Assembly: GCA_900553785.1 (NCBI GenBank)
Contig: USES01000003.1
Coordinates: 53 to 64,052 of the forward strand
Reading direction: 5' to 3'
Origin: an uncultured Clostridium sp.
GTDB taxonomy: Bacteria; Bacillota; Clostridia; TANB77; CAG-465
DNA length: 64,000 bases
Both the position numbers and the translations under genes were made by a program. The first letter of the stretch is position 1, and each line of letters begins with the position of its first letter. A model generated the notes under the pieces. It saw nothing but the letters and a program-made list of their open reading frames with translations. It was not told the origin of the DNA and did not search any database. Shown here piece by piece: positions 5,452 through 40,496 of the stretch.

Positions 5452-6096
5452 ATGAGTAAAAACAAAAGAATTTTATTATCTTTATGCATTTCTTTGATAT
5501 TATTAATAATATTTAACGTTGTATATTCAAAATTAAAAAAAGGAAAAGAAATAAAGGCATATGTTGTTACAAAAAGTATTGCTACTGGAGAAAATATAAA
5601 TGATGAAAATACAACTAGAGTTACTATTATTTTAGATAAGCCAAATGAAAATATACTTAATAATTTAAATGAAAATGAGTATGCACAAAAAGCCTTAAGT
5701 GTTGGACAAATACTAACAGTTGATTTAATTGATAACAAAAGTAAAGAAAGTGATAAAGAGTACGAAAATATATCTCTACCAATAACTAGCGCGGATGATG
5801 CTGCTTCGTATAAATTAAAAAAAGGAAGCATAGTAAACGTATATTATACTGCAAAGTATTCAAACGTTTCAGAAGTACTGAAAAGTAGTGATGAATTAGT
5901 GTATAGTTCTAAATCTTTAGATGGTGTAGTTACTGCAAAATTATATGAAAACATCGAGGTTATATCTCTAGCTGATAGTGCAGGTCAAGGAGAAAGTATT
6001 TATACTCAAATACAAATTAGAGTTAAAAAAAGTGAGATAGCAAGATTAGTTTGTCTTAAACAGTTTGGAACATTTACATTAACTTTATCAGAATAG
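5452..6096 (+). CDS. CpaB/RcpC-like pilus assembly protein (SAF domain)
   Basis: N-terminal TM. SAF-like segment (AYVVTKSIATGENINDEN...ALSVGQILTVDLI). C-terminal RcpC-like segment (LPITSADDAASYKLKKGSIVNVYYT). Confidence 0.55.
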   Translation: MSKNKRILLSLCISLILLIIFNVVYSKLKKGKEIKAYVVTKSIATGENINDENTTRVTIILDKPNENILNNLNENEYAQKALSVGQILTVDLIDNKSKESDKEYENISLPITSADDAASYKLKKGSIVNVYYTAKYSNVSEVLKSSDELVYSSKSLDGVVTAKLYENIEVISLADSAGQGESIYTQIQIRVKKSEIARLVCLKQFGTFTLTLSE

Positions 6097-6105
6097 GAGG
6101 AGAAA

Positions 6106-6396
6106 ATGGCTGTAAATTATGTATATGATGATGAAAACAAGGAATTTGTGAATGTAATAAAACCAATGTTTTCAAAATATACAAGAGGTTTAAATTTAAC
6201 TTTGTATATTACTGATGATATAAAACTATTACCAAACAAAGAAGAATTTAATCATCAAATTATAATTATAACATGCAATTGTTCTAAAGAGTTTGTGAAT
6301 AAAGCAGTTAATATAACTGATTATTTGTTATACAAGTGTGATTCTGAATTGTTAGTAAATAAACTAAAAACGTTGTTAGGAAAATCACAAAGATGA
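6106..6396 (+). CDS. Hypothetical protein (96 aa), possibly a receiver-like/TadZ N-terminal-like fold
   Basis: SD GGAGGAG upstream. Stop overlaps the next start (ATGA). Alternating beta/alpha hydrophobic pattern. No ATPase motif. Confidence 0.35.
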   Translation: MAVNYVYDDENKEFVNVIKPMFSKYTRGLNLTLYITDDIKLLPNKEEFNHQIIIITCNCSKEFVNKAVNITDYLLYKCDSELLVNKLKTLLGKSQR

Positions 6397-6893
6397 AAAA
6401 AGTAATAATTTTAATTTTTTTAATATTAGTTATATTAGCAGCATTTAAATACATAAGTAATCATACTATCGAAAGAAGTATAGGTAATGAATTTAAAGTA
6501 AATTGCATGGATGATAGATGCTGCGTGTATACCAATGATACAATTTCTATCGGCAATAATGAAAAAGAACTTAATAATGGTTTTTATGATGTATTATTTG
6601 AAAGGGAAGACACAGGACTAGTTATACACGTAAATAAACTTTGGAAAGATGTTTTTAATGAAAACCTTTATGAAGAAGAATATGTAAATTTTGTTGAAAA
6701 AAATATTTTACAATTTGTTGGTAATAAGAGTGATAATAAAGACACGAGCGGTTTGTTAGAAGGATATGTTGTTGATGGATATAAAGCTAGCAAAAACGGT
6801 TTGGAATATATCAAGGAGATTAAACTAAATAATTATAGCATTTTATTTGAGAGCAAAAATCACGAATTATTGATAGAGGTGAAAAATAGTTGA
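6393..6893 (+). CDS. Hypothetical membrane-anchored protein (166 aa)
   Basis: N-terminal signal anchor KKVIILIFLILVILAAF. Translationally coupled on both sides. Confidence 0.4.
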   Translation: MKKVIILIFLILVILAAFKYISNHTIERSIGNEFKVNCMDDRCCVYTNDTISIGNNEKELNNGFYDVLFEREDTGLVIHVNKLWKDVFNENLYEEEYVNFVEKNILQFVGNKSDNKDTSGLLEGYVVDGYKASKNGLEYIKEIKLNNYSILFESKNHELLIEVKNS

Positions 6894-8461
6894 AAAAATT
6901 TTTAAGAATTATAGTTGTATTTGTTTTTATCGCGTATATTTCTAGAGTGTATGGAATGTCATCAGAGTTTAAATGTACTATAAATGAATTGGGCGTGCCA
7001 GAGTACAATGTTAAGAATATGCAACTAAATGAGGATATATATTTAAAATATAACATATTTGTATACGGAAAACCGGAAAATGTTAATTCAAGTGAGCAAA
7101 GGTGGAAAAATTTATCTAATGGTAATATGACAAAGAACGGAAAAAAAGGAGAATATGCAGTTCTTGGATATGATTATGCTTCAAATTTAATATACAATTA
7201 TTATTTTCCTCTAGATAGAGTCACTTCTACTCCAGTAGAAAAATGGCAATTCTTAATTATTCCTGGGGCTGATAAATCGTGGAATGAGGCGTACAAATAT
7301 TATACAGAAGAACAGGTTGATTATATGAAGAGGTCTAGATGGTGGTTTCAAAATATAAAGGATGGAAAAAATGATCCATACGATCAGATTAAATATAATT
7401 TGAATTCAATAAAAGTAGGACTGAATAAGTGTAGGTTAGAAACACCGGCAACGTGGAAAACTAAAGGAAGTATTTTCACAAAAAGAAGGACTGAGTCTGG
7501 CGGAGTAGGATGGGCAAATTTTGCCATAGAACCTATGTCAGCAGATGCAAAAGTTAAAAGTAATATTTCATTTAAAAAGGAATATACACTTGATGAATTA
7601 TCTGACCAAGTTGCAATACCTATAAAATATGGAGCTGTATTGGATAATTTGAGTGAATATGCAAAAGCAAAACATGTTAAAGGATTTACATCTGAACTGT
7701 TTATAGATGGCAAGAAAGCAACCAGTGTAAGTGGCAGTAAAATTACAAGTGTGGGCAGTGAGTATATACTTGTAATTTCCCGTAATCAAATTCCCCAAAA
7801 TAAAGATTACAAAATTAAAATTAATGTATTTAGTTTCGTTAAAACTGAGTTTTTAGCAGATGGATTGTTACAAGATAATATAGAAGTAACTTTAACAATT
7901 CACGTTGAACCCAAAAAAGTCATCCCTATTGAAGAAAGTGTTATTAAAATACTGAGTAAAGATAAAAATAATTGGGTTGTAAGTCCACTTGCCCAAAATT
8001 TAAATACTGTAAAAAGTAATAGCTCAGGAATTACTGAGGCTGGAAGGTGTTTAATGCTTAGATGTAAGTTAAATTGCAATAAGGAAGATATACAAAATAT
8101 AGCAGTTAACATAGATGGAGTTAAAGTAAGTGATACAAAGGTATTAAATAGTATTACAAAAGATTTATTAGTTTCTTTCACTGTTCCAAATGATACAAGT
8201 CCTACTGTATACGGATGGAAAAGTTTAAGGGATAAAACAGGAAATTTTTTTGATATCAATAGTAATGAAGTGCTTACAAGAAAATCTAATCCTCATACCA
8301 TTATTATGAAATATGAATTACATGGCAATGTTTATGAAGAGAAAATATTATTTGATACAATTGATGATTACATTAGCAATATGAATAACAACATTCTAAG
8401 TAAACTTAATATTACTAGATATGGACATTCAGAAATTTTACGAGAGGTTATTTGTGAATAG
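6890..8461 (+). CDS. Hypothetical secreted protein (523 aa) within the Tad-like cluster
   Basis: TTG start overlaps the upstream TGA. Signal peptide MKKFLRIIVVFVFIAYISRVYG. Beta-rich sequence with no recognised domain. Confidence 0.45.
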   Translation: MKKFLRIIVVFVFIAYISRVYGMSSEFKCTINELGVPEYNVKNMQLNEDIYLKYNIFVYGKPENVNSSEQRWKNLSNGNMTKNGKKGEYAVLGYDYASNLIYNYYFPLDRVTSTPVEKWQFLIIPGADKSWNEAYKYYTEEQVDYMKRSRWWFQNIKDGKNDPYDQIKYNLNSIKVGLNKCRLETPATWKTKGSIFTKRRTESGGVGWANFAIEPMSADAKVKSNISFKKEYTLDELSDQVAIPIKYGAVLDNLSEYAKAKHVKGFTSELFIDGKKATSVSGSKITSVGSEYILVISRNQIPQNKDYKIKINVFSFVKTEFLADGLLQDNIEVTLTIHVEPKKVIPIEESVIKILSKDKNNWVVSPLAQNLNTVKSNSSGITEAGRCLMLRCKLNCNKEDIQNIAVNIDGVKVSDTKVLNSITKDLLVSFTVPNDTSPTVYGWKSLRDKTGNFFDINSNEVLTRKSNPHTIIMKYELHGNVYEEKILFDTIDDYISNMNNNILSKLNITRYGHSEILREVICE

Positions 8462-8924
8462 AAAAAAAGGAGAACTTCTTGTTGTAGTAGTTATTGTAAC
8501 AGCTCTTGTTTTAATTTTATGTTTAGTTGCAGTTTCTATGCAATATTTTCAGATAAACAATATGCTTACAGATTTAAAATACAATTTGTTTTATATATGC
8601 CAAAATTCAATTTTGGCGTATGGTGATGAATTAAATTTAGATGTTTATAAGATAGATTCACAGACACTGAAAAGTACAATATGTGATTTACTGGTAAAAA
8701 ATTATATTGAAACAAGGAAGGATATTAGTTACATAACAGTAGAGGAATTACAACTTTTTGTAAATAAAGATGAATGCATAAATCATACAAAAGGACAGTA
8801 TGAAGAACCTTATGTACACATAGTCGTAAATGTTGGGTTTATACCTGTTATTAAAATTGGTGATGTAGATAAGAAAAAAGTGACAATACATCAAGATGTG
8901 AAGTTGTCACTTATGAAATATTGA
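8454..8924 (+). CDS. TadE-like pseudopilin candidate
   Basis: The ORF track starts at 8421. The in-frame GTG at 8454 gives VNRKKG-ELLVVVVIVTALVLILCLVAV, that is a basic leader, Gly, Glu, then a hydrophobic helix as in TadE/TadF. Confidence 0.4.
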   Translation: MNRKKGELLVVVVIVTALVLILCLVAVSMQYFQINNMLTDLKYNLFYICQNSILAYGDELNLDVYKIDSQTLKSTICDLLVKNYIETRKDISYITVEELQLFVNKDECINHTKGQYEEPYVHIVVNVGFIPVIKIGDVDKKKVTIHQDVKLSLMKY

Positions 8925-8936
8925 TTTGGAGGAAAT

Positions 8937-9320
8937 ATGAAAAAAGCTGGGAGTACAGCTATAAGTGTTGCGTTAATAACAATAGTAGGAATAGTAGCAA
9001 TATGCGTGTTTATTGCATGTATATTAAATTTTATTACACCGCTTATATTACAACAAAAGCTTCAAGCTGTTGTAAATAAATACATGTATATTATAGAAAG
9101 GTATGGATATCTTACTGTGGCGGAAAAAGATGCCTTGGTAGATGAGCTTGAGAAAGACGGTTTTGATATATCTAGAATATATATAAGTTATCCATCTTCG
9201 AAACAGGCTTATGGCGAAAGGTTGGAGTTAAGTATTTCATATAAATATAATCCCATACCTGTTTTGGGCATGGAAGAAAGAAATATTAAGATATTTAAAA
9301 TGAGTTACTCTAAAACATAA
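8937..9320 (+). CDS. Small pilin-like protein (127 aa), Firmicute Tad-accessory type
   Basis: MKKAG-STAISVALITIVGIVAICVFIA N-terminus (a Gly followed by a hydrophobic helix). SD GGAGGA upstream. Last gene of the co-directional cluster. Confidence 0.4.
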   Translation: MKKAGSTAISVALITIVGIVAICVFIACILNFITPLILQQKLQAVVNKYMYIIERYGYLTVAEKDALVDELEKDGFDISRIYISYPSSKQAYGERLELSISYKYNPIPVLGMEERNIKIFKMSYSKT

Positions 9321-18186: not shown

Positions 18187-19095
18187 ATGGGAAATTTATA
18201 TTTACCGATGAAAGCAAACGAAAAACGGGAAATTATTGCAGCATACAATGATGGCATAGTAACAAAGAAGAGTAAAATTAGTTCTCATAAAGAAGTAATT
18301 GGGAGGTATAATGATAAAGAAATAGTAGACGCCTACTCTTCTTCCAATAAGCTTGTTGGAAGAATATACTTAAATAAAGGGTACATAGGAAATGCAGAAG
18401 TGCCGTTTGTTTTTGGTGATAGCTGTGGCAAGTTATATGTGAATGGTTATCATGTTGCAGATTTTGATGGTGACATGAAAGGCGCTATAGCTGCATATAT
18501 ATCCAATTATTGTTATGATGGCAAGAATGTTCAAAAGGAGCCAGTAAGACAAGTCAAAGAGCCAAAACCACCCTTAAAAGAGAAGCCGATGCCAGTACAT
18601 AAGGAGGAGCCAAAGTATCAAAAGAAAAGAATAGAAGAGATTCCTAGTATTTCAGAATCAGATACTTCAGCTGCTGGCGTTGGCATGATTTTTGTAGGAA
18701 TAGTATTTGCAGTTTTGTTCGTAGTTGCTTCTATTGGTGCCTCGATTATGTATTGGAAAGAAACAATTTTGTTTCTCATTACTTTTGGCCAAGCAAATCC
18801 GGACTATTTAGTGGACTTCCCTGATTTTTTTGTAGGAATATTCCCTATTATCGCAGCAATTATTGCTTATCAACTTTTAAAAGCTATAAAAACAGATGAT
18901 AAAAGCAAAACAAATAAGTATTGCTTAGGAATATTTTTGACATATTTAGCAGCTATTATAATTGAGGCAATTATGAATAAAGGAGACATTGGTGATATAA
19001 TCAGGGCTACAGTCGGCATCATAGTTATTTCCATTGTTCCGTTTGGAGTAATGTTTATTGTTTACTTGATAAATAGTAAACGTACCAGTAAGTAA
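18187..19095 (+). CDS. Hypothetical membrane protein, paralog 1 (302 aa)
   Basis: SD GAGGAGA. Soluble N-terminal domain of about 115 aa, a K/E/P-rich linker and four predicted TMs. Shares conserved blocks with the next gene. Confidence 0.6.
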   Translation: MGNLYLPMKANEKREIIAAYNDGIVTKKSKISSHKEVIGRYNDKEIVDAYSSSNKLVGRIYLNKGYIGNAEVPFVFGDSCGKLYVNGYHVADFDGDMKGAIAAYISNYCYDGKNVQKEPVRQVKEPKPPLKEKPMPVHKEEPKYQKKRIEEIPSISESDTSAAGVGMIFVGIVFAVLFVVASIGASIMYWKETILFLITFGQANPDYLVDFPDFFVGIFPIIAAIIAYQLLKAIKTDDKSKTNKYCLGIFLTYLAAIIIEAIMNKGDIGDIIRATVGIIVISIVPFGVMFIVYLINSKRTSK

Positions 19096-19102
19096 TTTAA
19101 AT

Positions 19103-19136
19103 ACACCCTGTACAATGTGTACAGGGTGTGTTTTTT
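19103..19136 (+). terminator. Rho-independent terminator after paralog 1
   Basis: Stem ACACCCTGTACA/TGTACAGGGTGT followed by TTTTTT. Confidence 0.7.
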
Positions 19137-19186
19137 ATATATAAGTTCATAATATAGTGAAAATAATGATATTGAACTTGTTTTGG

Positions 19187-19215
19187 TTGACAATAATCTT
19201 GAGTTGTAGTATAAT
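19187..19215 (+). promoter_or_regulatory. Consensus sigma-A promoter of paralog 2
   Basis: Exact TTGACA-N17-TATAAT. Confidence 0.65.
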
Positions 19216-19267
19216 CTTAGTATGTGAAGTTTAAATCCAAAGATAATTCTTGCAAGGAGGACTAATT

Positions 19268-31475: not shown

Positions 31476-32564
31476 TTAAAATTCAAGCCATAATCCTTCT
31501 TTTATTAGCTTGTTTGTCATTTGAATATGTTCAGCATTAGTTTTTGTAAAATACAACTTACCATATTTATCTGCTACAAAGAAATAATTATCTGTTGCTT
31601 TTGGGTATATTGCGGCTTTTATAGAAGATTCTGCAACATTTGAAATTGGTCCTACTGGAAGTTTGCCTTGCATATTTGGACCTCTTGTGTTGTATGGGTT
31701 ATATGCATCTAATTCTGATTGGTATAAATCTCTTTCCCCAAGTTCAATTCCTATAGCATAATATGTTGTAACATCACTTCCTAAAGAATCACCAGATTTT
31801 AATCTGTTATAAAATACACCTGCAACTTCAGCTCTGTCTTCTGCCTTTACAGCTTCTTTTTCACAAAGAGATGCTAGTGTAAGTAATTCGTGAACTGAAT
31901 ATTTACTTTTTTCAATATCTTCTTTGTATTTTGTAAGTACTTTGTCCATTTGATTTAACATAGCTTCAAAAATTTGCTCTACAGTTACATCACGAGATTC
32001 AAAGCTATATGTATCAGGGAAAAGATATCCCTCTAATGGGTAATATATATCTTTGTTTTTAATTTCGTCTGTTATAAACCAATACTTGTCTATAATTTTG
32101 TTTATATATTCTTCATTTTTCATTAAATCATAAACGTCTTGTTCACTGTTATTAGTTACTTGAGATATGTATTTAGCAAACTTTTTCATTGATGTACCCT
32201 CTACAAACGTAACATCAAAATTTGTGTCTACAAAAACAATTCCTTTTTTTAGTGCGTCTATAATTTCATCTAGCGTCATTGATGGACTTAAGTAGTATGT
32301 ACCAGCTTGAAGCCCTTCAACTTTATTTAGTTTCAAATAAATTTTAAATGCAGTTTTGTTTTTTATAATTCCTGCCTCTTCTAATTTTTGACCTATTGAA
32401 TCATTTGAACTTCCAATTTCGATTTCAACTTTCTTTTTTTCAGTGTCATTAGACACAGGAGAAATATTTGTTCTGTACCAAATTAAAGGAGATACACCCG
32501 CAATAATTAGAATAACGATTAGTATAATAACAACTGTTAATAATTTTTTCTTTTTCATAATCAC
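31476..32564 (-). CDS. mltG: Endolytic murein transglycosylase MltG (YceG family)
   Basis: N-terminal TM. YceG-like motifs (LASLCEKEA, VFYNRL, NPYNTR...LPVGPISN). Confidence 0.85.
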   Translation of the reverse strand: MIMKKKKLLTVVIILIVILIIAGVSPLIWYRTNISPVSNDTEKKKVEIEIGSSNDSIGQKLEEAGIIKNKTAFKIYLKLNKVEGLQAGTYYLSPSMTLDEIIDALKKGIVFVDTNFDVTFVEGTSMKKFAKYISQVTNNSEQDVYDLMKNEEYINKIIDKYWFITDEIKNKDIYYPLEGYLFPDTYSFESRDVTVEQIFEAMLNQMDKVLTKYKEDIEKSKYSVHELLTLASLCEKEAVKAEDRAEVAGVFYNRLKSGDSLGSDVTTYYAIGIELGERDLYQSELDAYNPYNTRGPNMQGKLPVGPISNVAESSIKAAIYPKATDNYFFVADKYGKLYFTKTNAEHIQMTNKLIKEGLWLEF

Positions 32565-32651: not shown

Positions 32652-32680
32652 TTGAAAACTAAAAATATTTGGTATAAAAT
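32652..32680 (+). promoter_or_regulatory. Candidate sigma-A promoter upstream of the leader mini-ORF and GLUG gene
   Basis: TTGAAA followed 15-17 nt later by TGGTATAAAAT (extended -10). Confidence 0.5.
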
Positions 32681-32704
32681 ATTGGAAAATAAAGGAGAAA
32701 ACAA

Positions 32705-32761
32705 ATGAAAATGATGGAAAATAATGTAAATGGGGGGGGGGCAAAAAAGCCTTCTAAATAG
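32705..32761 (+). CDS. Leader mini-ORF (18 codons, MKMMENNVNGGGAKKPSK) containing the G10 tract
   Basis: SD AAGGAG about 8 nt upstream of the ATG. Below the ORF-track size cutoff. Translated by hand. Confidence 0.3.
   Translation: MKMMENNVNGGGAKKPSK
32732..32741 (+). repeat. Homopolymeric G tract (10 G as displayed)
   Basis: The displayed blocks tggggggggg gc give ten consecutive G. It is the only long G/C homopolymer I noticed in this AT-rich window. Confidence 0.85.
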
Positions 32762-32785
32762 TTGTTTTCAAGGACAAGTTATATT

Positions 32786-32833
32786 GGCCTATGCTTTGCA
32801 TACAGAAAATGTATGTAAGTCATAGGTCTTTTT
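32786..32833 (+). terminator. Terminator/attenuator-like hairpin between the leader ORF and the GLUG gene
   Basis: Outer stem GGCCTATG/CATAGGTC, inner stem GCATACA/TGTATGT, GAAAA loop, then CTTTTT. Confidence 0.5.
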
Positions 32834-32886
32834 GCGTTCTATTATCATGTGTTTGCAACCTTTATTTAAAAAGAAAGAGGAGGAAT

Positions 32887-35004
32887 ATGAAAATGATAAA
32901 GAAAAATGCAATTTCGCTTATTGTGTTGGTAATTACCATAATTATTATTACAATACTTGCTGCGACTGTAGTAGTTAGTATAAGCAATTCCAATATAATA
33001 AATAAGGCTAAAGATGCAGTAAATATGAATGATTTAAAACAAGTACAGGAATTTGCTAATCTTGAATGGAATAGTGCATATTTAGAGGGTGCACGTAGTA
33101 GAGTGGAATTGGAGAGTGCCGTTCTTAAAAAAATGAAAGAAAGTAACATAAATATGGATATGTATGATGTTACAGTAACAGAAAGCGGCGTACAAGTAAA
33201 ACAAGGGTATGGCTTGGAAATAAAAGAAGAAATTAGTATCACTACAAGTGATCAAATTTATGCCCTTGGAAGGATTCTAACTACAGATGATTTAAGAAAA
33301 GAATGCTATAAAAACTATGAAAGCGTAGACAAAGGCCTAGAGGCAGATTTAAGCTTATTTAGCTTTCCAGATACTATAGCTACAATTGATGAAAAGATAG
33401 AATATTTAACAACAACATCATATAAACTTGAAAATGATGTAGAGCTTAAATTATTGAAAAATGGTTATACTTCAAATTTAGCAATAGGGAGTAGCAATAG
33501 ACCATTTAAAGGTTATTTTAATGGAAATAACAAAACTATACTAATTACTGAATCAGGTACCAGCACTCGTGAAGGATTTGGAGGAATATTTGGATATGTA
33601 GAAAATGCTACAATATCTAATGTGAATATAAAGTTTGCATCTGATATAAATATGAGTGTTGGCATAAAAGATACATTAGGTGTAGGGGAACATTACATTG
33701 GCATGCTTGTATCAAGGATGAAAAATACAGTATTGTATAACAATAATATTATTATATCAGGTAAGTCTGTAAAATTTGTTTTTGATAATGCTTCGTTTAA
33801 AAGAAGTTTGCGAATCGGAGGAGTTGCAGGGCTTGTTGAAGGAAATTCTAAAATCAAAAAATGCTCGTTTATATTAGAAAATAACGCGCAAATTTTGATT
33901 TCTGATACAGCAGATGAAGATAATTATGACTTTGCTTTTGGCGGAATTGTAGCTAAATCTAAATTAGAAACCAACGAAAGAATGGAAATATCTGATTGTA
34001 ATGTAGACTTGTCTAATTCTAAAATAGAAGTTATATCTCCTAGATTGGGTTACTGTGCAGGTGTTATTGCAGACGCAATGTATACAACTATTAGAGATAC
34101 AAATGTTACTTTAAAGAATAGTACTATGGGTACTACTTCTGCAGGAGATGGTTATTCAACATTAACCTACTACTATTCTTTGATTACAGGAGGTTTAGTT
34201 GGTTTCGCACGTCATGGCTCTAATAATGAAAATGGACCTTATGGACTTGAGGGCGTAGTGGTAGAGGGTTGCTCATTTAATTCTACTAATGATACACAAA
34301 AAGAAGTGCTATTTTCAAAAATAAACAAGGGATACTCACCTAATGTAGGTGGAATAATTGGAATAGCATTCAATAATGCAGTTATAAAAGATACAAACGT
34401 AGGTATTACTAACGGCTCATTTGTTGCAGAAAAAACTGGAGAGGATAGTTACAATGGTCCTGGATCAACTTGTGGTGGAATTATAGGAAGATTAGAACAC
34501 ACCGGAGTTGTAAAAGGTTGTCAAGTTGTTGGAAATAACTTTAACATTTTGTCTAAATCAACTAAAAGAGAAATGTATGCAGGTGGTATTGTAGGAATAG
34601 ATATAGGACCTTATCATAAAAATGTAATATCGCTAGAAAATAATAAATTTATTGGCAATAATACTTCAAGTATAACTGTTGAACTTGTTAGCGGAAATGC
34701 TGAAAACAGGTATATATATGTTGGTGGAATAGCTGGTCAATCTACATATATAATGAAGAATTGTTTTGTATCAGGTGTTACATTATATCACAATGGTGTA
34801 AATACAGGAGCCAAACAAGCTGCCGTTGGAAAACTGGCAGGAAGATTTGTAAAGTATGCAACTGAAGGAACTTTAGGAACACACTTTACTCCAAGTGAAG
34901 ATATTGGAATTATTGGTTGTCAAACAGATAATGTGAATATAGTTATAAATGATAATAACAGCGGTATTGTACAACAAGGTGAAGAGTACGGTACTAATAA
35001 TTAA
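32887..35004 (+). CDS. Pilin-like N-terminal anchor fused to a GLUG-repeat (glycine-rich beta-helix-like) surface protein
   Basis: The ORF track starts at 32791. The ATG at 32887 (residue 33) follows AAGAGGAGGA. N-terminus MKMIKKNAISLIVLVITIIIITILAATVVV. At least 8 repeats of the type GGI(F/V/A/I)G...N(C/V): GGIFGYVENATISN, IGGVAGLVEGNSKI, FGGIVAKS, GGLVGFA, VGGIIGIAFNNAVI, CGGIIGRLEHTGVV, AGGIVGID, VGGIAGQSTYIMKNC. Confidence 0.6.
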   Translation: MKMIKKNAISLIVLVITIIIITILAATVVVSISNSNIINKAKDAVNMNDLKQVQEFANLEWNSAYLEGARSRVELESAVLKKMKESNINMDMYDVTVTESGVQVKQGYGLEIKEEISITTSDQIYALGRILTTDDLRKECYKNYESVDKGLEADLSLFSFPDTIATIDEKIEYLTTTSYKLENDVELKLLKNGYTSNLAIGSSNRPFKGYFNGNNKTILITESGTSTREGFGGIFGYVENATISNVNIKFASDINMSVGIKDTLGVGEHYIGMLVSRMKNTVLYNNNIIISGKSVKFVFDNASFKRSLRIGGVAGLVEGNSKIKKCSFILENNAQILISDTADEDNYDFAFGGIVAKSKLETNERMEISDCNVDLSNSKIEVISPRLGYCAGVIADAMYTTIRDTNVTLKNSTMGTTSAGDGYSTLTYYYSLITGGLVGFARHGSNNENGPYGLEGVVVEGCSFNSTNDTQKEVLFSKINKGYSPNVGGIIGIAFNNAVIKDTNVGITNGSFVAEKTGEDSYNGPGSTCGGIIGRLEHTGVVKGCQVVGNNFNILSKSTKREMYAGGIVGIDIGPYHKNVISLENNKFIGNNTSSITVELVSGNAENRYIYVGGIAGQSTYIMKNCFVSGVTLYHNGVNTGAKQAAVGKLAGRFVKYATEGTLGTHFTPSEDIGIIGCQTDNVNIVINDNNSGIVQQGEEYGTNN

Positions 35005-35008
35005 TAGT

Positions 35009-35036
35009 AAGTGGTCATTAAAAAATGGCCACTTTT
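35009..35036 (+). terminator. Rho-independent terminator after the GLUG gene
   Basis: Stem AAGTGGTCAT/ATGGCCACTT (one mismatch) followed by TTT. Confidence 0.55.
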
Positions 35037-35211: not shown

Positions 35212-35883
35212 ATGGAAATATTAAAAGTAGAAAATTTAAGTAAGATTTACGGAAAAGACAGTACCAAAGTAGTTGCACTAGATAATGTTTCTTTTAGTGT
35301 AAATAAAGGTGAGTTTGTTGCAATAGTTGGTGCTAGTGGTAGCGGGAAGTCAACATTGCTTCATTTGATTGGTGGAGTAGATAGACCAACTAAAGGTAAG
35401 GTGTATATAAATGACCAAGATATATATGCTTTAAATGACGATAGCCTGGCTATATTTAGAAGAAGACAAATTGGACTTATTTATCAGTTTTATAACTTAA
35501 TTCCAATATTAAATGTAGAAGAAAATATTGCATTACCATTAGAGTTAGATTCAAGGCATGCAGACAAGGAAGATATGGAACGTATGTTAAAATTACTTGG
35601 ACTTCAAAATAGAAGAACACATTTACCAAATGAATTGTCTGGTGGACAACAGCAACGTACTTCTATAGGAAGAGCGTTAATTACACGTCCAGCAATAATT
35701 TTAGCTGATGAGCCAACTGGAAACCTTGATTCTAAAGCAAGTAATGAAATAGTTGAGCTTTTAAGAAAATCTAACAAAGAGCTTAACCAAACAATTATCA
35801 TGATAACTCATAATATGGAAATAGCTAAATGTGCAAATAGAATAATTAAAATTGAAGATGGAAAAATTGTAAAGGAGGATTAG
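35212..35883 (+). CDS. ABC transporter ATP-binding protein (MacB/BceA-like)
   Basis: Walker A GASGSGKST, signature LSGGQQQR, Walker B ILADEPTGNLD. Confidence 0.9.
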   Translation: MEILKVENLSKIYGKDSTKVVALDNVSFSVNKGEFVAIVGASGSGKSTLLHLIGGVDRPTKGKVYINDQDIYALNDDSLAIFRRRQIGLIYQFYNLIPILNVEENIALPLELDSRHADKEDMERMLKLLGLQNRRTHLPNELSGGQQQRTSIGRALITRPAIILADEPTGNLDSKASNEIVELLRKSNKELNQTIIMITHNMEIAKCANRIIKIEDGKIVKED

Positions 35884-35887
35884 TCAT

Positions 35888-38572
35888 ATGAAACTCCTAA
35901 ATATATTAACATATAACAATTTAAAACTTAATAAGAAAAGAACTGTAATCGGTATAATTGGAATATTACTTGCAGTTGCACTTCTTACTGCAGTATCAAC
36001 TTTTGCAATGAGCGCCAAAGATTCACTTGTTGAATTTGAGAAAAAAGCAGAGGGAAACTTTCACTATGAGTTTGAAGGCGTAAATGCAGATGAACTTGGA
36101 ACGTTTGAAAATAACCGTAATATCGAAAGTTATTTTTATACTAAAGATTTGGGTTATGCTAAATTAGAAAACTGTCAAAATGATTACAAACCTTATGCAT
36201 ACGTTACAGCATATGATGCAAAAGGACTAGAAGAATTAAAAGTAAATTTGGTAGAAGGAAGATTACCTCAAAATGAGAATGAAATATTAATGCCAACACA
36301 TGTAGTAACGAATGGGAGACTAGATATTAAAGTCGGGGATACTATTACATTAAATATTGGAAAAAGAATGAGCGAAGATTTTGAACTTAACCAAGGGAAT
36401 CCATTTCATGATGAAAATGACGAAAGAATTATAGACACAACTACTCATACATATAAAATAGTGGGAATGATTGAAAGACCTGGTAAAATTATAGAACCAA
36501 ATTCCGCTCCTGGCTATACTTTTATAACTACTCAAAGTAAATTTGATGGTAATATTACTGTATTTGTAAGATTTACAAAAAAGGCACTTAAAGATTTAGA
36601 TAGTGTAGTTCCAGCTGTGCTTGGTGTAGATAAAGAAGCATATAAGATATACTTTAATTTCAACAAGTATTATAACTTGGAAGATTACAGCATGGAAGAG
36701 CGTACAGAGTTGCTCGAGAAGGCAGGAAAAGAAATTGAAAAGGCCAAATATGATTTTACAGATAACAATAGACTTATAGCTTTAGAAGGTATGCCACTAG
36801 ATGATGCTATGATAAAGAGCCTTTTTGCAGTAGCTGTAATAGTTACTTTAATAATTATAACGTCATCTGTATTTTGTATTAGAAACCTATTTTTAATTTC
36901 AACAACAGAAAAAGTAAAACAATATGGTGTACTTGCAAGTGTTGGAGCAACAAGAAAACAAATCAAAAAGAGTGTATTATTTGAGGCCTTACTTATGGGA
37001 CTTGTTGGAATACCACTAGGGTTAATATTAGGACTACTTGCAACATTTATACTAATAAAAGTATGTAATTGGTTTTTAGTAGATTTATCTTCAATATTTA
37101 ATTTAACTTTAATATTTAATGTATCACCATGGGCAATAATAATATCTGTGATTTTAAGCATAATTACAATATATTTATCAGCATTAAAAAGTGCACGTAT
37201 GGCAGCTCGTCTTGCTCCACTTGATGCAATAAGAAGTACGGCAGATATAAAGGTAGATTATAAAAAAGTTAAATGCCCTAAAATTATATCTAAAATATTT
37301 AAAATTGGTGGAACAATCTCATATAAAAATATGAAGAGAAATAAGAAAAAGTATAAAACCGCAATAGTATCAATATTCTTATGTGTGGCAACATTTATAC
37401 CTCTATCATATTTTGTATCGCTTACATTTAGCATTACACGTATGGCGTATAAAGAGTTTTCTTATGATATGTGTGTATTTGATAAATCTGGAGACAAAAA
37501 AGGTTTTGAAGAAAAGTTAAATGAGATAGCAAGACTTGATGAAGTAAAGGGCTATTCTATAGTTAGTAACACAGCATTTTTAATTGAAGACCAAAAATAC
37601 TTAACTGAAGACTATATAAATTTTAGAGGGCCTAATTACTCTATATCTCAAGAAGATTCGGATATAGATAAACAATACTATTCAATGGAATTTGTAGCTC
37701 TAGATGATAGAAGTTATGTGTCTTACGTAAAATCTTTGGGACTTGATGTATCTAAAACAAAAGACAAAGTAATTCTATTAAATAAGTATAGTGGAATGGC
37801 ATATAACAAAGAAAAAGGGAGTACAGATATGGCTGAAATAGACATTTTGAATGTGACTGCAAATAGTACAGTTAAAGGATACTTTATGGAAAATGGCCTG
37901 GATAAAGAGTTAGATATTACTATAGCTGCTATTACGGATAAAAAGCCTATTGCAGAAGTTAGCACAAGTTCAGCTACAATGATAGTAAACATGGAATACT
38001 TTAGTAGTTTAGTTGAAAATAACGGTGGTTATGGAAAAAAATTATATATTTCAACAGATAAAAATATGGCTTTAGGTGAAGAGATTGAAGAGATACTTAA
38101 AGGATATGACTATGGAATAGATGATATAAAAGAGCAGGCACAGGCAATGAAGTCAATATTTACTATTATTGCAATTTTCATGTATGGTTTCATAACTGTA
38201 ATTGCATTAATTGGTATTACTAATATTGTAAATACACTAAATACAAGTATGGAATTAAGAAGTAGAGAATTTGCCACTCTTAAGAGTTTGGGTATGACAT
38301 CAAATGAATTTAGTAGTATGGTAAATTTAGAGAGTATATTTATTGGAACTAAAGCGTTAGTATTTGGTGTACCAATTGGGCTGGTATTATCTTATTTGTT
38401 AAACAAAGTACTTACAAATGGTTCATTTACAATAGCATTTAACCCACCTATACTTGCTACACTTGGTGCAGTTGTATTTGTATATGCATTGCTTCTTCTA
38501 ATAATGCACTACGCAATAAAGAAAGTAAATAAGAAAAACATTATAGATACTATACGAAATGAGAATATATAA
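35888..38572 (+). CDS. ABC transporter permease with two FtsX/MacB-type modules (894 aa)
   Basis: Two copies of the same module: one TM, a large extracytoplasmic domain, then three TMs. FtsX-like segments around SVGATRKQIKKSVLFEALLMG and LKSLGMTSNEFSSMVNLESIF. Confidence 0.8.
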   Translation: MKLLNILTYNNLKLNKKRTVIGIIGILLAVALLTAVSTFAMSAKDSLVEFEKKAEGNFHYEFEGVNADELGTFENNRNIESYFYTKDLGYAKLENCQNDYKPYAYVTAYDAKGLEELKVNLVEGRLPQNENEILMPTHVVTNGRLDIKVGDTITLNIGKRMSEDFELNQGNPFHDENDERIIDTTTHTYKIVGMIERPGKIIEPNSAPGYTFITTQSKFDGNITVFVRFTKKALKDLDSVVPAVLGVDKEAYKIYFNFNKYYNLEDYSMEERTELLEKAGKEIEKAKYDFTDNNRLIALEGMPLDDAMIKSLFAVAVIVTLIIITSSVFCIRNLFLISTTEKVKQYGVLASVGATRKQIKKSVLFEALLMGLVGIPLGLILGLLATFILIKVCNWFLVDLSSIFNLTLIFNVSPWAIIISVILSIITIYLSALKSARMAARLAPLDAIRSTADIKVDYKKVKCPKIISKIFKIGGTISYKNMKRNKKKYKTAIVSIFLCVATFIPLSYFVSLTFSITRMAYKEFSYDMCVFDKSGDKKGFEEKLNEIARLDEVKGYSIVSNTAFLIEDQKYLTEDYINFRGPNYSISQEDSDIDKQYYSMEFVALDDRSYVSYVKSLGLDVSKTKDKVILLNKYSGMAYNKEKGSTDMAEIDILNVTANSTVKGYFMENGLDKELDITIAAITDKKPIAEVSTSSATMIVNMEYFSSLVENNGGYGKKLYISTDKNMALGEEIEEILKGYDYGIDDIKEQAQAMKSIFTIIAIFMYGFITVIALIGITNIVNTLNTSMELRSREFATLKSLGMTSNEFSSMVNLESIFIGTKALVFGVPIGLVLSYLLNKVLTNGSFTIAFNPPILATLGAVVFVYALLLLIMHYAIKKVNKKNIIDTIRNENI

Positions 38573-38578
38573 TAAATG

Positions 38579-38612
38579 CACGCCGTAAGGTATAAACTTG
38601 CGGTGTGTTTTT
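38579..38612 (+). terminator. Rho-independent terminator after the ABC operon
   Basis: 11-bp stem CACGCCGTAAG/CTTGCGGTGTG (two G-U pairs) followed by TTTTT. Confidence 0.6.
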
Positions 38613-38656
38613 GATTTACTCCTTAATTTATGGTAAAATATACGAGGTGAGAATAA

Positions 38657-39307
38657 ATGAGAATAATGCTTGTAGAGGACAATTCAACTATTGCTAAGGG
38701 GCTACATTATACATTTGAACAAAATGGATATGAATGTGTTATTGCTTCATGTGTAAAAGATGCAAAAGATATAATTGAAAAATACAGTATTGACCTTGTA
38801 GTACTAGATGTGTCACTTCCTGATGGCAATGGGTTTGAACTGTACAAAGAATATATAAAACCTAAAAAAATTGCAACTATATTTTTGACTGCAAAAGATA
38901 CGGAAGATGATATAGTGAAAGGATTTGAATTAGGTGCAGAAGATTATATTACAAAACCTTTTTCTACTAGAGAGCTTTTAGCAAGAATTAATAGAATTAA
39001 AGTTAATGGCAAGAAAAATATAATAAAAGTTAAGGACATTTCTTTAGATATGGATAAAATGCAGGTATATAAAAATGGAACGGAAATAACTCTCACAAGC
39101 CTTGAACTTAAAATATTGCATTTGTTATTTTTAAATTTGAACAAAGTTGTAACGCGTGATTATTTAATTGAGAGTATTTGGAATTGGACTGGAAATGATG
39201 TAAGTGATAACACTATTACGGTGTATTTAAAACGAATTAGAGAAAAGCTTGGGGAGAATATTATTGTTACAGTTAAAGGAATTGGGTATAGAATAGATGA
39301 AAGTTAA
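38657..39307 (+). CDS. OmpR/PhoB-family response regulator
   Basis: Receiver domain (MLVEDN, DLVVLDVSLPDGNG, TAKD). Winged-helix C-terminus (LTSLELKILHLLF...ITVYLKRIREKL...GIGYRI). Confidence 0.9.
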   Translation: MRIMLVEDNSTIAKGLHYTFEQNGYECVIASCVKDAKDIIEKYSIDLVVLDVSLPDGNGFELYKEYIKPKKIATIFLTAKDTEDDIVKGFELGAEDYITKPFSTRELLARINRIKVNGKKNIIKVKDISLDMDKMQVYKNGTEITLTSLELKILHLLFLNLNKVVTRDYLIESIWNWTGNDVSDNTITVYLKRIREKLGENIIVTVKGIGYRIDES

Positions 39308-40496
39308 AAAATTATTAGTAATTTTTACAATAATAATTGTGGCATATTTGGTATGTTCAAATCTTGTATATATGTCTTTCGTAAATGAATATAAAAAGAA
39401 TCAAAATGAAGTGTTAAATGCTATTTTGTATAAAGTGACTGAAAAGTATCCTGATATAACGCAAGATGAATTGATGAGTATATTGAATAGTAATGAGTTT
39501 TATGAGCCAAATGTATTAGAAAACTATGGTATAAATCTTAATGACGATTTTGTTATACTAAAAAATCATGAAAATGCTAAGATGTTTTTTGCTATAAACA
39601 ATTGCGTTATATGTGCTATGATTATAGCAATTGTGTTGCTATGGATAAGTTACTATAAAGGTGAACAAAAACGAATTACAGATGTTACTAGGTGTTTAGA
39701 GAGAATAAATAATAGAGATTATGGTATAGATATAGAGGACAATGTTGAAGATGAGTTGTCTATACTAAAAAATGAGTTGTATAAAACTGCTATCATGTTA
39801 AGAGAGCATGCTGAAAACTCTGTTAAGGATAAAAAGAATATTAAGGTATCTTTAGAGGATATCTCACACCAACTTAAAACCCCTTTAACATCAATTAATA
39901 TATTACTGGATAATATATTAGATAACCCGGAAATACCAAATGAAGTAATGCTAGATTTTATTAAAGATATAAAAAAGGAAGTTGTTAAAATAAATTTCCT
40001 TATAGGCAATTTGCTAAAACTATCTAGATTTGATGTAAATGCAGTGCATATGGTAAATGATGCAAATAATTTAAAAGATATTATAGAGACGTCAGTTAAA
40101 AATGTTGCAGTACTTTGTGATTTAAAAGGTGTAAGAATTGAATGTAATGCAAAAAACATTGTTTTAAACTGTGATTTTAATTGGCAAGTAGAAGCTTTAA
40201 CTAATATTATTAAAAATTGTGTTGAGCATTCTTTTGAAGGTGGAGTAGTTACAATTAATACGAGTGAAAATAAAATATACACATTGGTTGAGATAAAAGA
40301 CAATGGATGTGGAATAGCTAGAGAAGATTTGCCGCATATTTTTGATAGATTTTATAGGGGAAAAAATTCAGATAAAGAAAGTGTTGGAATTGGACTTGCA
40401 CTTGCAAAAAGCATTATTGAAAAAAGTGGTGGCAAAATAGATGTTAAGTCCAGTCTTGGCGAGTACACTAGGTTTGAGATAAGATACTTTAAATAG
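39297..40496 (+). CDS. Sensor histidine kinase
   Basis: Two TMs flanking a loop of about 75 aa. H-box ISHQLKTPLTSI, N-box NIIKNCVEHS, G-boxes KDNGCGI and GIGLALAKS. Overlaps the response regulator stop. Confidence 0.9.
   Translation: MKVKKLLVIFTIIIVAYLVCSNLVYMSFVNEYKKNQNEVLNAILYKVTEKYPDITQDELMSILNSNEFYEPNVLENYGINLNDDFVILKNHENAKMFFAINNCVICAMIIAIVLLWISYYKGEQKRITDVTRCLERINNRDYGIDIEDNVEDELSILKNELYKTAIMLREHAENSVKDKKNIKVSLEDISHQLKTPLTSINILLDNILDNPEIPNEVMLDFIKDIKKEVVKINFLIGNLLKLSRFDVNAVHMVNDANNLKDIIETSVKNVAVLCDLKGVRIECNAKNIVLNCDFNWQVEALTNIIKNCVEHSFEGGVVTINTSENKIYTLVEIKDNGCGIAREDLPHIFDRFYRGKNSDKESVGIGLALAKSIIEKSGGKIDVKSSLGEYTRFEIRYFK

Follow-up and report, generated by a model that had tools for sequence, protein, structure and literature searches.

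A run of ten guanines (G10) stands out in DNA with a guanine-plus-cytosine (G+C) content of about 30%, and the run considered here raises the question of whether it sets the reading frame of a leader peptide and, with it, the expression of the gene that follows. It lies in a 64,000-nucleotide (nt) stretch of contig USES01000003.1 from an uncultured Clostridium sp., hereafter the window, inside an 18-codon open reading frame (mini-ORF) that is preceded by a predicted promoter and followed by a predicted intrinsic terminator and a surface-protein gene. As judged by sequence comparison, this poly-G leader belongs to a 5′ expression cassette that is present in multiple copies in uncultured gut Clostridia with ~30% G+C, and its membership in a repeated cassette is what is new here. 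The cassette may act as a phase-variable, ribosome-mediated attenuator, or on-off switch, a tentative reading that is held with slightly less than even confidence.

Each cassette is composed, in order, of a promoter, the mini-ORF, a terminator, and the region encoding the N-terminal anchor of the protein. Homology between loci spans from the −35 hexamer (32652) to approximately codon 45 of the protein (~33025) and then ends, and the flanks 5′ of the −35 hexamer are unrelated between loci; the cassette is a dispersed repeat of ~370 nt. A search pattern made from both flanks of the tract recovered four contigs of one metagenome (L003–L006), which differ in upstream flank and agree in promoter, SD, mini-ORF core, and hairpin, and homology searches with the conserved protein N-terminus and the contigs encoding it added L017, L019–L028, and L051. 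In total, the cassette was obtained at seven distinct loci in human- and pig-gut assemblies, with mltG, an M16 peptidase gene, addA, mscS, a HAD hydrolase gene, an S1-domain gene, and one further gene as neighbours, and an nhmmer profile scan of the 356 kb of related DNA that had been collected retrieved exactly the known copies and no further ones. A pilin-like gene follows the cassette at every locus for which downstream DNA is known. These genes begin M(K/R)KKNAISLIVLVITIIVMAILAAT..., and the N-terminal ~45 residues are conserved across the surface-protein family; the ectodomains are unrelated and include GLUG, DUF6273, and others. The nearest species in a genome collection scanned with MltG are uncultured Clostridium/Clostridia gut metagenome-assembled genomes, the closest of which (87% MltG identity) is without the cassette at this position, and scans of viral contigs found no leader.

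Because the cassette is a repeat, assemblies break within it (L002, L004, L005, L028). Two assemblies of one sample, specifically the window and L001, which are 99.8–100% identical over 3.6–4.5 kb, have an identical leader and, from the start codon onward (window 32887–32950 versus L001 1–80), different pilin-like genes. This difference reflects either an assembly mis-join at the repeat or recombination among family members, and the linkage of mltG to the GLUG gene in the window is thus to be read with some caution.

Within the window (29.9% G+C), the G10 tract is the only run of G or C longer than six. Runs of three, four, five, and six G occur 182, 34, 8, and 1 times, respectively, a run of ten occurs once, and the longest C-run is ≤4 nt; the expected number of runs of at least ten G, under independent and identically distributed bases, is 0.002. 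In ~356 kb of related DNA, all G/C runs of at least seven fall within copies of the poly-G leader. GGG is the rarest glycine codon in the window (9% of glycine codons), and the GGG-GGG-GGG-G of the mini-ORF is thus not a neutral coding choice. The original prediction had singled out this tract as the sole long G/C homopolymer and had placed it in an 18-codon ORF with a good Shine-Dalgarno (SD) sequence and a plausible promoter; the run counts bear out the former, and the SD and both promoter hexamers are present in the window and kept across copies. Recomputation of the frames also reproduced the earlier hand analysis of tracts with 9, 10, and 11 G, with G10 ending at the TAG and G11 or G8 at the TAA of the TAAATAG motif, and G9 or G12 leaving 39–40 codons open as far as a TAG within the hairpin (Table 1). 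The start of the mini-ORF, comprising its SD and first codons (32686–32729), is 70% identical, over 44 ungapped nt, to the corresponding part of the surface-protein gene (32868–32911), and the mini-ORF may have originated as a duplicated start of that gene.

The tract, and the frame that it would set, differ among copies. Tract lengths are 11, 10, 10, 10, 9, 9, and 8 nt, with the tract absent from the remaining copy, and all three frames are occupied, two copies being in the long frame, three ending at TAG, and three ending at TAA. All six full-length copies share one layout, retained despite spacer indels that are not multiples of three: two frames meet a stop ≤20 nt past the tract, and the remaining frame continues at least into the 3′ arm of the hairpin. 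The spacer between stop and hairpin is 21, 23, or 24 nt; the spacers of L003 and L006 (21 and 24 nt, versus 23 nt) shift the frame of the hairpin, and in both copies a TAA in the 3′ arm has become CAA, so that the hairpin is still open to translation. In L017, the 9-nt tract together with an in-frame 3-nt deletion keeps the long frame, and in L003 the long ORF ends in ATGA, in which the TGA overlaps the start codon of the surface-protein gene. Both of these long-frame copies have interrupted, less slippery tracts.

Conservation is uneven along the leader. Invariant or near-invariant positions comprise both promoter hexamers, the GGAG of the SD, the ATG, codons 4–9, AAAAAAG, TCTAAATAG, the stem positions of the hairpin, and the T-run, and the variable ones comprise the sequence 5′ of the −35 hexamer, codon 3, the spacer between stop and hairpin, the loop, and the tract itself. 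All copies have an unchanged TCTAAATAG motif, in which TAA and TAG lie in two different frames. Codon 2 of the mini-ORF always encodes lysine or arginine, and codon 3 is free to vary, without indels.

The hairpin downstream of these stops has 18 pairs and one bulge per arm, starts 25 nt from the mini-ORF stop, and is followed immediately by the T-run; its folding energy lies well below that of dinucleotide shuffles (Table 1), in agreement with the terminator-like element described earlier at this position. It is kept in the five aligned copies and, by inspection, in L051, and a run of four to six T follows it in every copy. Among the five aligned copies, substitutions in the hairpin are mostly one-sided, from G-U to G-C or A-U, two pairs are disrupted in one copy each, and the sole pair changed on both sides sits outside the hairpin; evidence from covariation is thus weak. 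As mltG is divergent in the window and the upstream gene at L017 has its own terminator, the leader hairpin is not the terminator of the upstream genes. For the complete 216-nt leader, the folding z-score is −6.5. The mini-ORF SD region AAAUAAAGG (32687–32696) is complementary to a conserved CCUUUAUUU box (32859–32868), and the CCTTTATTTAAAAA box that precedes the surface-protein SD is also present in the leader-less family members L018 and L029.

Table 1. Predicted features of the poly-G leader and surface-protein gene in the window, followed by the tract and mini-ORF frame of each cassette copy.
Feature	Position	Strand	Remarks
Sigma-70-type promoter, TTGAAA-17-TAAAAT	32652..32680	+	Score 10/12; 5′ edge of the repeated cassette
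Mini-ORF SD, AGGAG	32693..32697	+	7 nt 5′ of the ATG; GGAG invariant in all copies
Leader mini-ORF, 18 codons and TAG, MKMMENNVNGGGAKKPSK*	32705..32761	+	ATG invariant across copies
G10 homopolymer	32732..32741	+	Codons 10–12 and first base of codon 13 of the mini-ORF
TAAATAG	32755..32761	+	TAA 32755–32757 ends the G11/G8 frame; TAG 32759–32761 ends the G10 frame
Predicted intrinsic terminator	32786..32833	+	Hairpin 32786–32828 and T5 32829–32833; −23.2 kcal/mol, z = −6.2
Long-frame (G9/G12) stop, TAG	32823..32825	+	Within the 3′ arm of the hairpin; also the stop of the 39-codon ORF of L017
Conserved CCTTTATTTAAAAA box	32859..32872	+	Precedes the surface-protein SD; complementary to the SD region of the mini-ORF
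Surface-protein SD, GGAGG	32879..32883	+	9 nt before ATG 32893
Surface-protein gene	32893..35004	+	703 aa from 32893; 705 aa from 32887
Terminator of the surface-protein gene	35009..35034	+	Predicted
Window, L004, L005: tract G10			Ends at TAG
L006 = L054: tract G11			Ends at TAA
L003: tract GAGGGGGGG (GAG7, 9 nt)			Long frame, 62 codons
L017: tract GGGAGAGGG (9 nt) and in-frame 3-nt deletion			Long frame, 39 codons; annotated as a gene by its source
L051: tract GAGGGGGG (GAG6, 8 nt)			Ends at TAA
L019–L027 (nine pig-gut samples, identical): no tract			Ends at TAA

In the proposed switch, transcription would begin at ~32685, the mini-ORF would be strongly initiated and translated, and the intrinsic terminator beyond its normal stop would end most transcripts before the structural gene. 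The poly-G would be a hypermutable simple-sequence repeat, in which slipped-strand changes, possibly together with slippage of RNA polymerase, would set the reading frame. With G10, or with G11 or G8, the ribosome would be released at the conserved TAA/TAG, the hairpin would form, and the gene would be attenuated (OFF or low); with G9 or G12, the ribosome would enter or pass the hairpin and block its folding, and transcription would read through (ON). Family members would switch independently of one another, with combinatorial variation of the surface as the result. The sequences show the make-up of the cassette, its copy number, its link to the gene family, the differences in tract between loci, and the conserved frames and hairpin; a high mutation rate of the tract, translation of the mini-ORF, termination at the hairpin, and antagonism between ribosome and hairpin are inferred. 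The consensus states that the model would assign to the copies are two ON and six OFF, as expected for a repertoire with few members expressed at once, and the tract-less, locked-short allele lies before a decayed family member, a 93-amino-acid (aa) remnant, which fits a silenced locus.

Several observations weigh against such a switch. No change of tract length at one and the same locus was seen; where a locus was observed repeatedly (window/L001/L002 and L006/L054), it was identical each time, and these observations are probably not independent, the window, L001, and L002 coming from one sample (100% and 99.8% nucleotide identity). Other strains of the window locus, sought via KsgA, yielded only the same sample or contigs ending short of the leader, and the orthologues of the G11 locus formed one cluster of identical sequence. 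The MltG cluster has 22 members, of which P0125 is carried on 34 contigs and P0126 on 10. The heterogeneity of tract length for which the original prediction had proposed a check was thus found in related assemblies between loci but not within a locus. The orthologues L004 and L019 (96.7% identical over 2.4 kb) differ in having or lacking G10C, which is therefore a within-species polymorphism; this presence or absence is the only such polymorphism seen, and the tract-less allele is fixed in the nine pig-gut samples. The 2:3:3 spread of copies over the three frames is equally expected if the frame is irrelevant. The three-frame layout arises by chance at ~0.12 in random sequence of the same composition, and the copies are related and hence not independent tests of it; what weight the layout has comes, on the aligned sequences, from its conservation across copies and not from the layout alone. 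Some family members lack the leader (L018, L029/L041, L052, L053), and in L006 it is bypassed by a second promoter, which lies between terminator and gene, 190 nt beyond the unit. In addition, folding gave no antiterminator: when the 3′ arm is blocked, the 5′ arm finds no strong partner. With no alternative fold competing for the 5′ arm, the leader is not a trp-type attenuator, and only direct occlusion of the hairpin by the ribosome, as originally proposed, could link translation to read-through. Such occlusion is possible but would need a ribosome close behind RNA polymerase, and tight coupling of transcription and translation is not the rule in Firmicutes, as in B. subtilis. The phase-variable attenuator originally proposed is partly supported: it fits the conserved cassette, the occupation of all frames, and the retention of stops and hairpin, but no length change within a locus was seen among the copies compared.

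The apparent randomness of the frames would also suit a different and unlikely role, in which the G-run is a recognition or structural element of a cis-regulatory RNA or attenuator instead of a frame switch. The tract would be the target of a C/U-rich small RNA (sRNA) or of a protein, as in RepG/tlpB, or a length-dependent tuner of messenger RNA (mRNA) level, as in uspA1, and its length would modulate expression gradually and independently of mini-ORF translation; G-repeats that act at the RNA level in 5′ leaders provide precedents (PMC8322730, PMC7302503). Around the tract, the core sequence of the eight copies shows nucleotide-level conservation and not one synonymous change, although part of this conservation is ascertainment, since four copies were found by an exact-match pattern. 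The G-run also pairs locally with GCCUUCU within a GAAAAUAAU/GUUGUUUUC helix, but this local hairpin is not retained in L017 or L019, no match to Rfam 15 reached the gathering threshold in the leader (best weak match 18.6 bits versus a threshold of 49.9), and the window offers no C-run longer than four as a pairing partner. A purely RNA-level role would also leave unexplained why the SD and ATG are invariant, why the paired stops are conserved, and why the TAA is gone from the copies with a shifted frame. Somewhat less probable is that the unit from promoter to terminator is an autonomous small gene, for an sRNA of ~145 nt or a phase-variable 39-aa protein in the G9/G12 frame, that was duplicated together with the surface genes and has the hairpin as its own terminator. 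The unit is complete for transcription and translation (promoter, SD, ORF, and terminator), at L017 its 39-aa ORF is annotated as a gene, four copies have long-frame peptides with a shared ending (...CKS*), and the surface-protein gene of L006 has its own promoter. The constant linkage to a pilin-like gene speaks against autonomy, however, as do the long frames of L003 and L006, which pass the T-run of the terminator and would give a non-stop message; moreover, the spacer indels alter the C-terminal half of the peptide, which is not conserved as a protein.

That the mini-ORF arose by duplication of the 5′ end of a surface gene and has since decayed, with a neutral or hitch-hiking tract that is homogenised by gene conversion and has no regulatory function, is more improbable again. 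The resemblance of its SD and start region to those of the gene would be explained in this way, as would the loss of the tract in one allele, and the family offers further points in favour, in that many members are pseudogenised and members recombine or are mis-joined at the cassette. Unselected, however, a pure G10–11 should decay fast at 30% G+C, and four of the seven loci retain one; the greatest conservation, furthermore, is found in the hexamers, SD, ATG, stops, stems, and T-run, with variation in loops and spacers, which is the pattern of functional constraint. An artefact of sequencing or assembly, such as poly-G from two-colour chemistry or a chimeric join, is excluded in practice. Contigs often break at the element and two assemblies of one sample disagree on the gene that comes next, as an artefact might produce, but the repeat nature of the cassette explains the breaks, and a Logan contig stops not within the run but past it, after the adjoining C. 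Independent assemblies, made in different studies, have the tract at one and the same position, and diverged, interrupted tracts such as GAG7, GAG6, and GGGAGAGGG are not expected from an artefact. Two other candidate mechanisms were rejected: a dnaX-like −1 frameshift at A-AAA-AAG would be in phase only with G10, and its −1 frame stops at once at the TAA; a role as promoter spacer is incompatible with a tract ~50 nt downstream of the conserved −10 hexamer and with no flanking hexamers.

The attenuator reading, to which we return, combines components that are each already known, specifically poly-G contingency tracts, leader-ORF attenuators, terminator-based phase variation, and 5′ surface-protein cassettes. 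The tpr genes of Treponema pallidum form a multigene family with a poly-G before each member, a property shared by the cassette family here. In the vlp genes of Mycoplasma hyorhinis, the promoter, leader, and signal or anchor region are conserved, the exposed part varies, and a poly-A lies in the promoter spacer. The cassette resembles vlp in its conserved 5′ part, variable exposed part, and homopolymer as the proposed switch, but its poly-G lies in a leader ORF 5′ of a terminator and not in a promoter spacer. The length of an upstream poly-G changes the mRNA level of uspA1 in Moraxella catarrhalis (PMC7302503), and both systems place a G tract of ~8–12 between the promoter region and a surface-protein ORF. 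Unlike in uspA1 and tpr, the tract here is inside a predicted leader ORF with a terminator beyond it, tract length is predicted to be read out through the reading frame, with a period of three, instead of through promoter geometry, the organism is a Gram-positive commensal of the gut, and switching was not seen among the copies compared. As at contingency loci, a slip-prone homopolymer of ~8 or more is present (G10 in the window; G10, G10, and G11 at paralogous loci), and wherever downstream DNA is known, the copy stands before a gene for an N-terminally anchored protein whose ectodomain varies. A variable G-repeat in the mRNA leader of Helicobacter pylori tlpB sets the expression of an envelope protein through RepG (PMC8322730); that system uses a C/U-rich, trans-acting sRNA and acts on translation, whereas no partner is known here, the repeat lies within an upstream ORF (uORF), and a terminator follows.

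Attenuation of transcription mediated by uORFs and ribosomes is documented in Firmicutes (PMC9226507, PMC10314930), and the leader-peptide attenuators (vmlR and msrD in Firmicutes; trp/his) share with the cassette a short ORF near the promoter, a strong SD, and a predicted intrinsic terminator before the structural gene (PMC9226507, PMC10314930). The cassette differs from them in having neither mutually exclusive antiterminator and terminator folds nor an obvious stalling signal linked to a metabolite or antibiotic, and its proposed input is a heritable change of frame and not a physiological signal. A clostridial parallel is cwpV of Clostridioides difficile, in which phase variation of a surface protein operates via formation, or not, of a terminator in the leader (PMC2784873). 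Both have a clostridial surface protein that is controlled between promoter and ORF via an intrinsic terminator, but cwpV, unlike the poly-G cassette, depends on recombinase-mediated DNA inversion between inverted repeats. A cwpV-type invertible switch was rejected here: one orientation was found at all seven loci and in all samples, no recombinase was found among the neighbours, and the only inverted repetition is a complementarity of 9–10 nt between the SD region and the CCTTTATTT box. A full-text search of a limited literature collection found no description of a homopolymer in a leader ORF combined with a terminator, and the original prediction likewise knew of no description of the combination that it proposed. 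That a frame-setting poly-G in a leader ORF upstream of a terminator, within a portable promoter-leader-anchor cassette, is a previously undescribed contingency switch is put forward more guardedly than the attenuator itself, as a possibility with roughly one chance in three.

The surface-protein gene of the window encodes a protein with a short basic N-terminus, a single hydrophobic helix, and a variable ectodomain with a GLUG motif (Pfam Glug, 24.5 bits versus a cut-off of 20.5); an exact look-up of the protein returned no record. The gene probably starts at ATG 32893 and not, as originally proposed, at ATG 32887, which lies just 3 nt downstream of GGAGG, is ATT in L017 and L019, and is out of frame in L003. 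The earlier label of pilin-like denotes a resemblance: a short basic leader precedes one long hydrophobic helix, and the best PDB profile matches are pilins (MshA, geopilin), albeit weak (E = 0.26–0.6), but the protein failed the test for a prepilin motif (G at −1, F or M at +1, E at +5), reading KKNA-ISLIVLVITII and lacking the G, F, and E. Neither Pfam N_methyl nor TIGR02532 was matched, even at permissive Pfam and NCBIfam thresholds. A relative carries the NCBI name 'type II secretion system protein'. The term thus denotes, on the sequence, an N-terminal anchor of pilin-like shape, with a weak resemblance to pilins. Owing to its own predicted terminator, the gene is monocistronic.

In the pig gut, family members are often split or decayed, as in pairs of 211 + 194 aa and 91 + 244 aa and the 93-aa remnant (L017 1479–2679; L051 3001–4170; L019 2501–3240; L029–L050). 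One pig-gut locus alternates between samples via A3/A2 and GAGA/GAGAGA differences, and none of the frameshift junctions of split family members is at a long homopolymer. An rve-family transposase gene lies just 5′ of a pilin-like gene in some samples (L041 1300–2277, L048 116–1093), and the same locus is uninterrupted in others.

The locus is chromosomal and lies amid housekeeping genes, with mltG/yceG (31476–32558) upstream on the opposite strand, then ksgA, and then a DUF348-G5-SLT gene. Directly 3′ of the GLUG gene (35212–40496) is a BceAB/RS-like module of an ABC ATPase, an 894-aa FtsX-type permease, an OmpR-type response regulator, and a histidine kinase. Elsewhere in the window (25289–27259 and 18187–20146), an otherwise housekeeping region encodes a TraG/VirD4-type coupling protein, and two adjacent ORFs of ~300 aa are apparent paralogues with no family match; these may be the remnant of a conjugative element. 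A series of small membrane proteins at 5452–9320, with no family match save a weak one to RcpC/CpaB, may represent a Tad/Flp-like pilus cluster. The stop codons of 24 long ORFs inspected in the window were 15 TAA, 9 TAG, and no TGA.

At a practical level, the ~370-nt dispersed cassette breaks or mis-joins metagenome assemblies at exactly these surface-protein genes. Phase variation is well documented in pathogens and barely so in uncultured Gram-positive gut commensals, for which most of what is known concerns invertible promoters. If the proposed switch is real, it would represent a new wiring of slipped-strand mutation with ribosome-mediated attenuation, and abundant gut Clostridia would possess a multigene repertoire of individually switchable surface proteins. 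With each locus switching for itself, uncultured commensal gut Clostridia would be able to diversify their surface in many combinations, which would bear on escape from phages, escape from immunity, and the tracking of strains in metagenomes.

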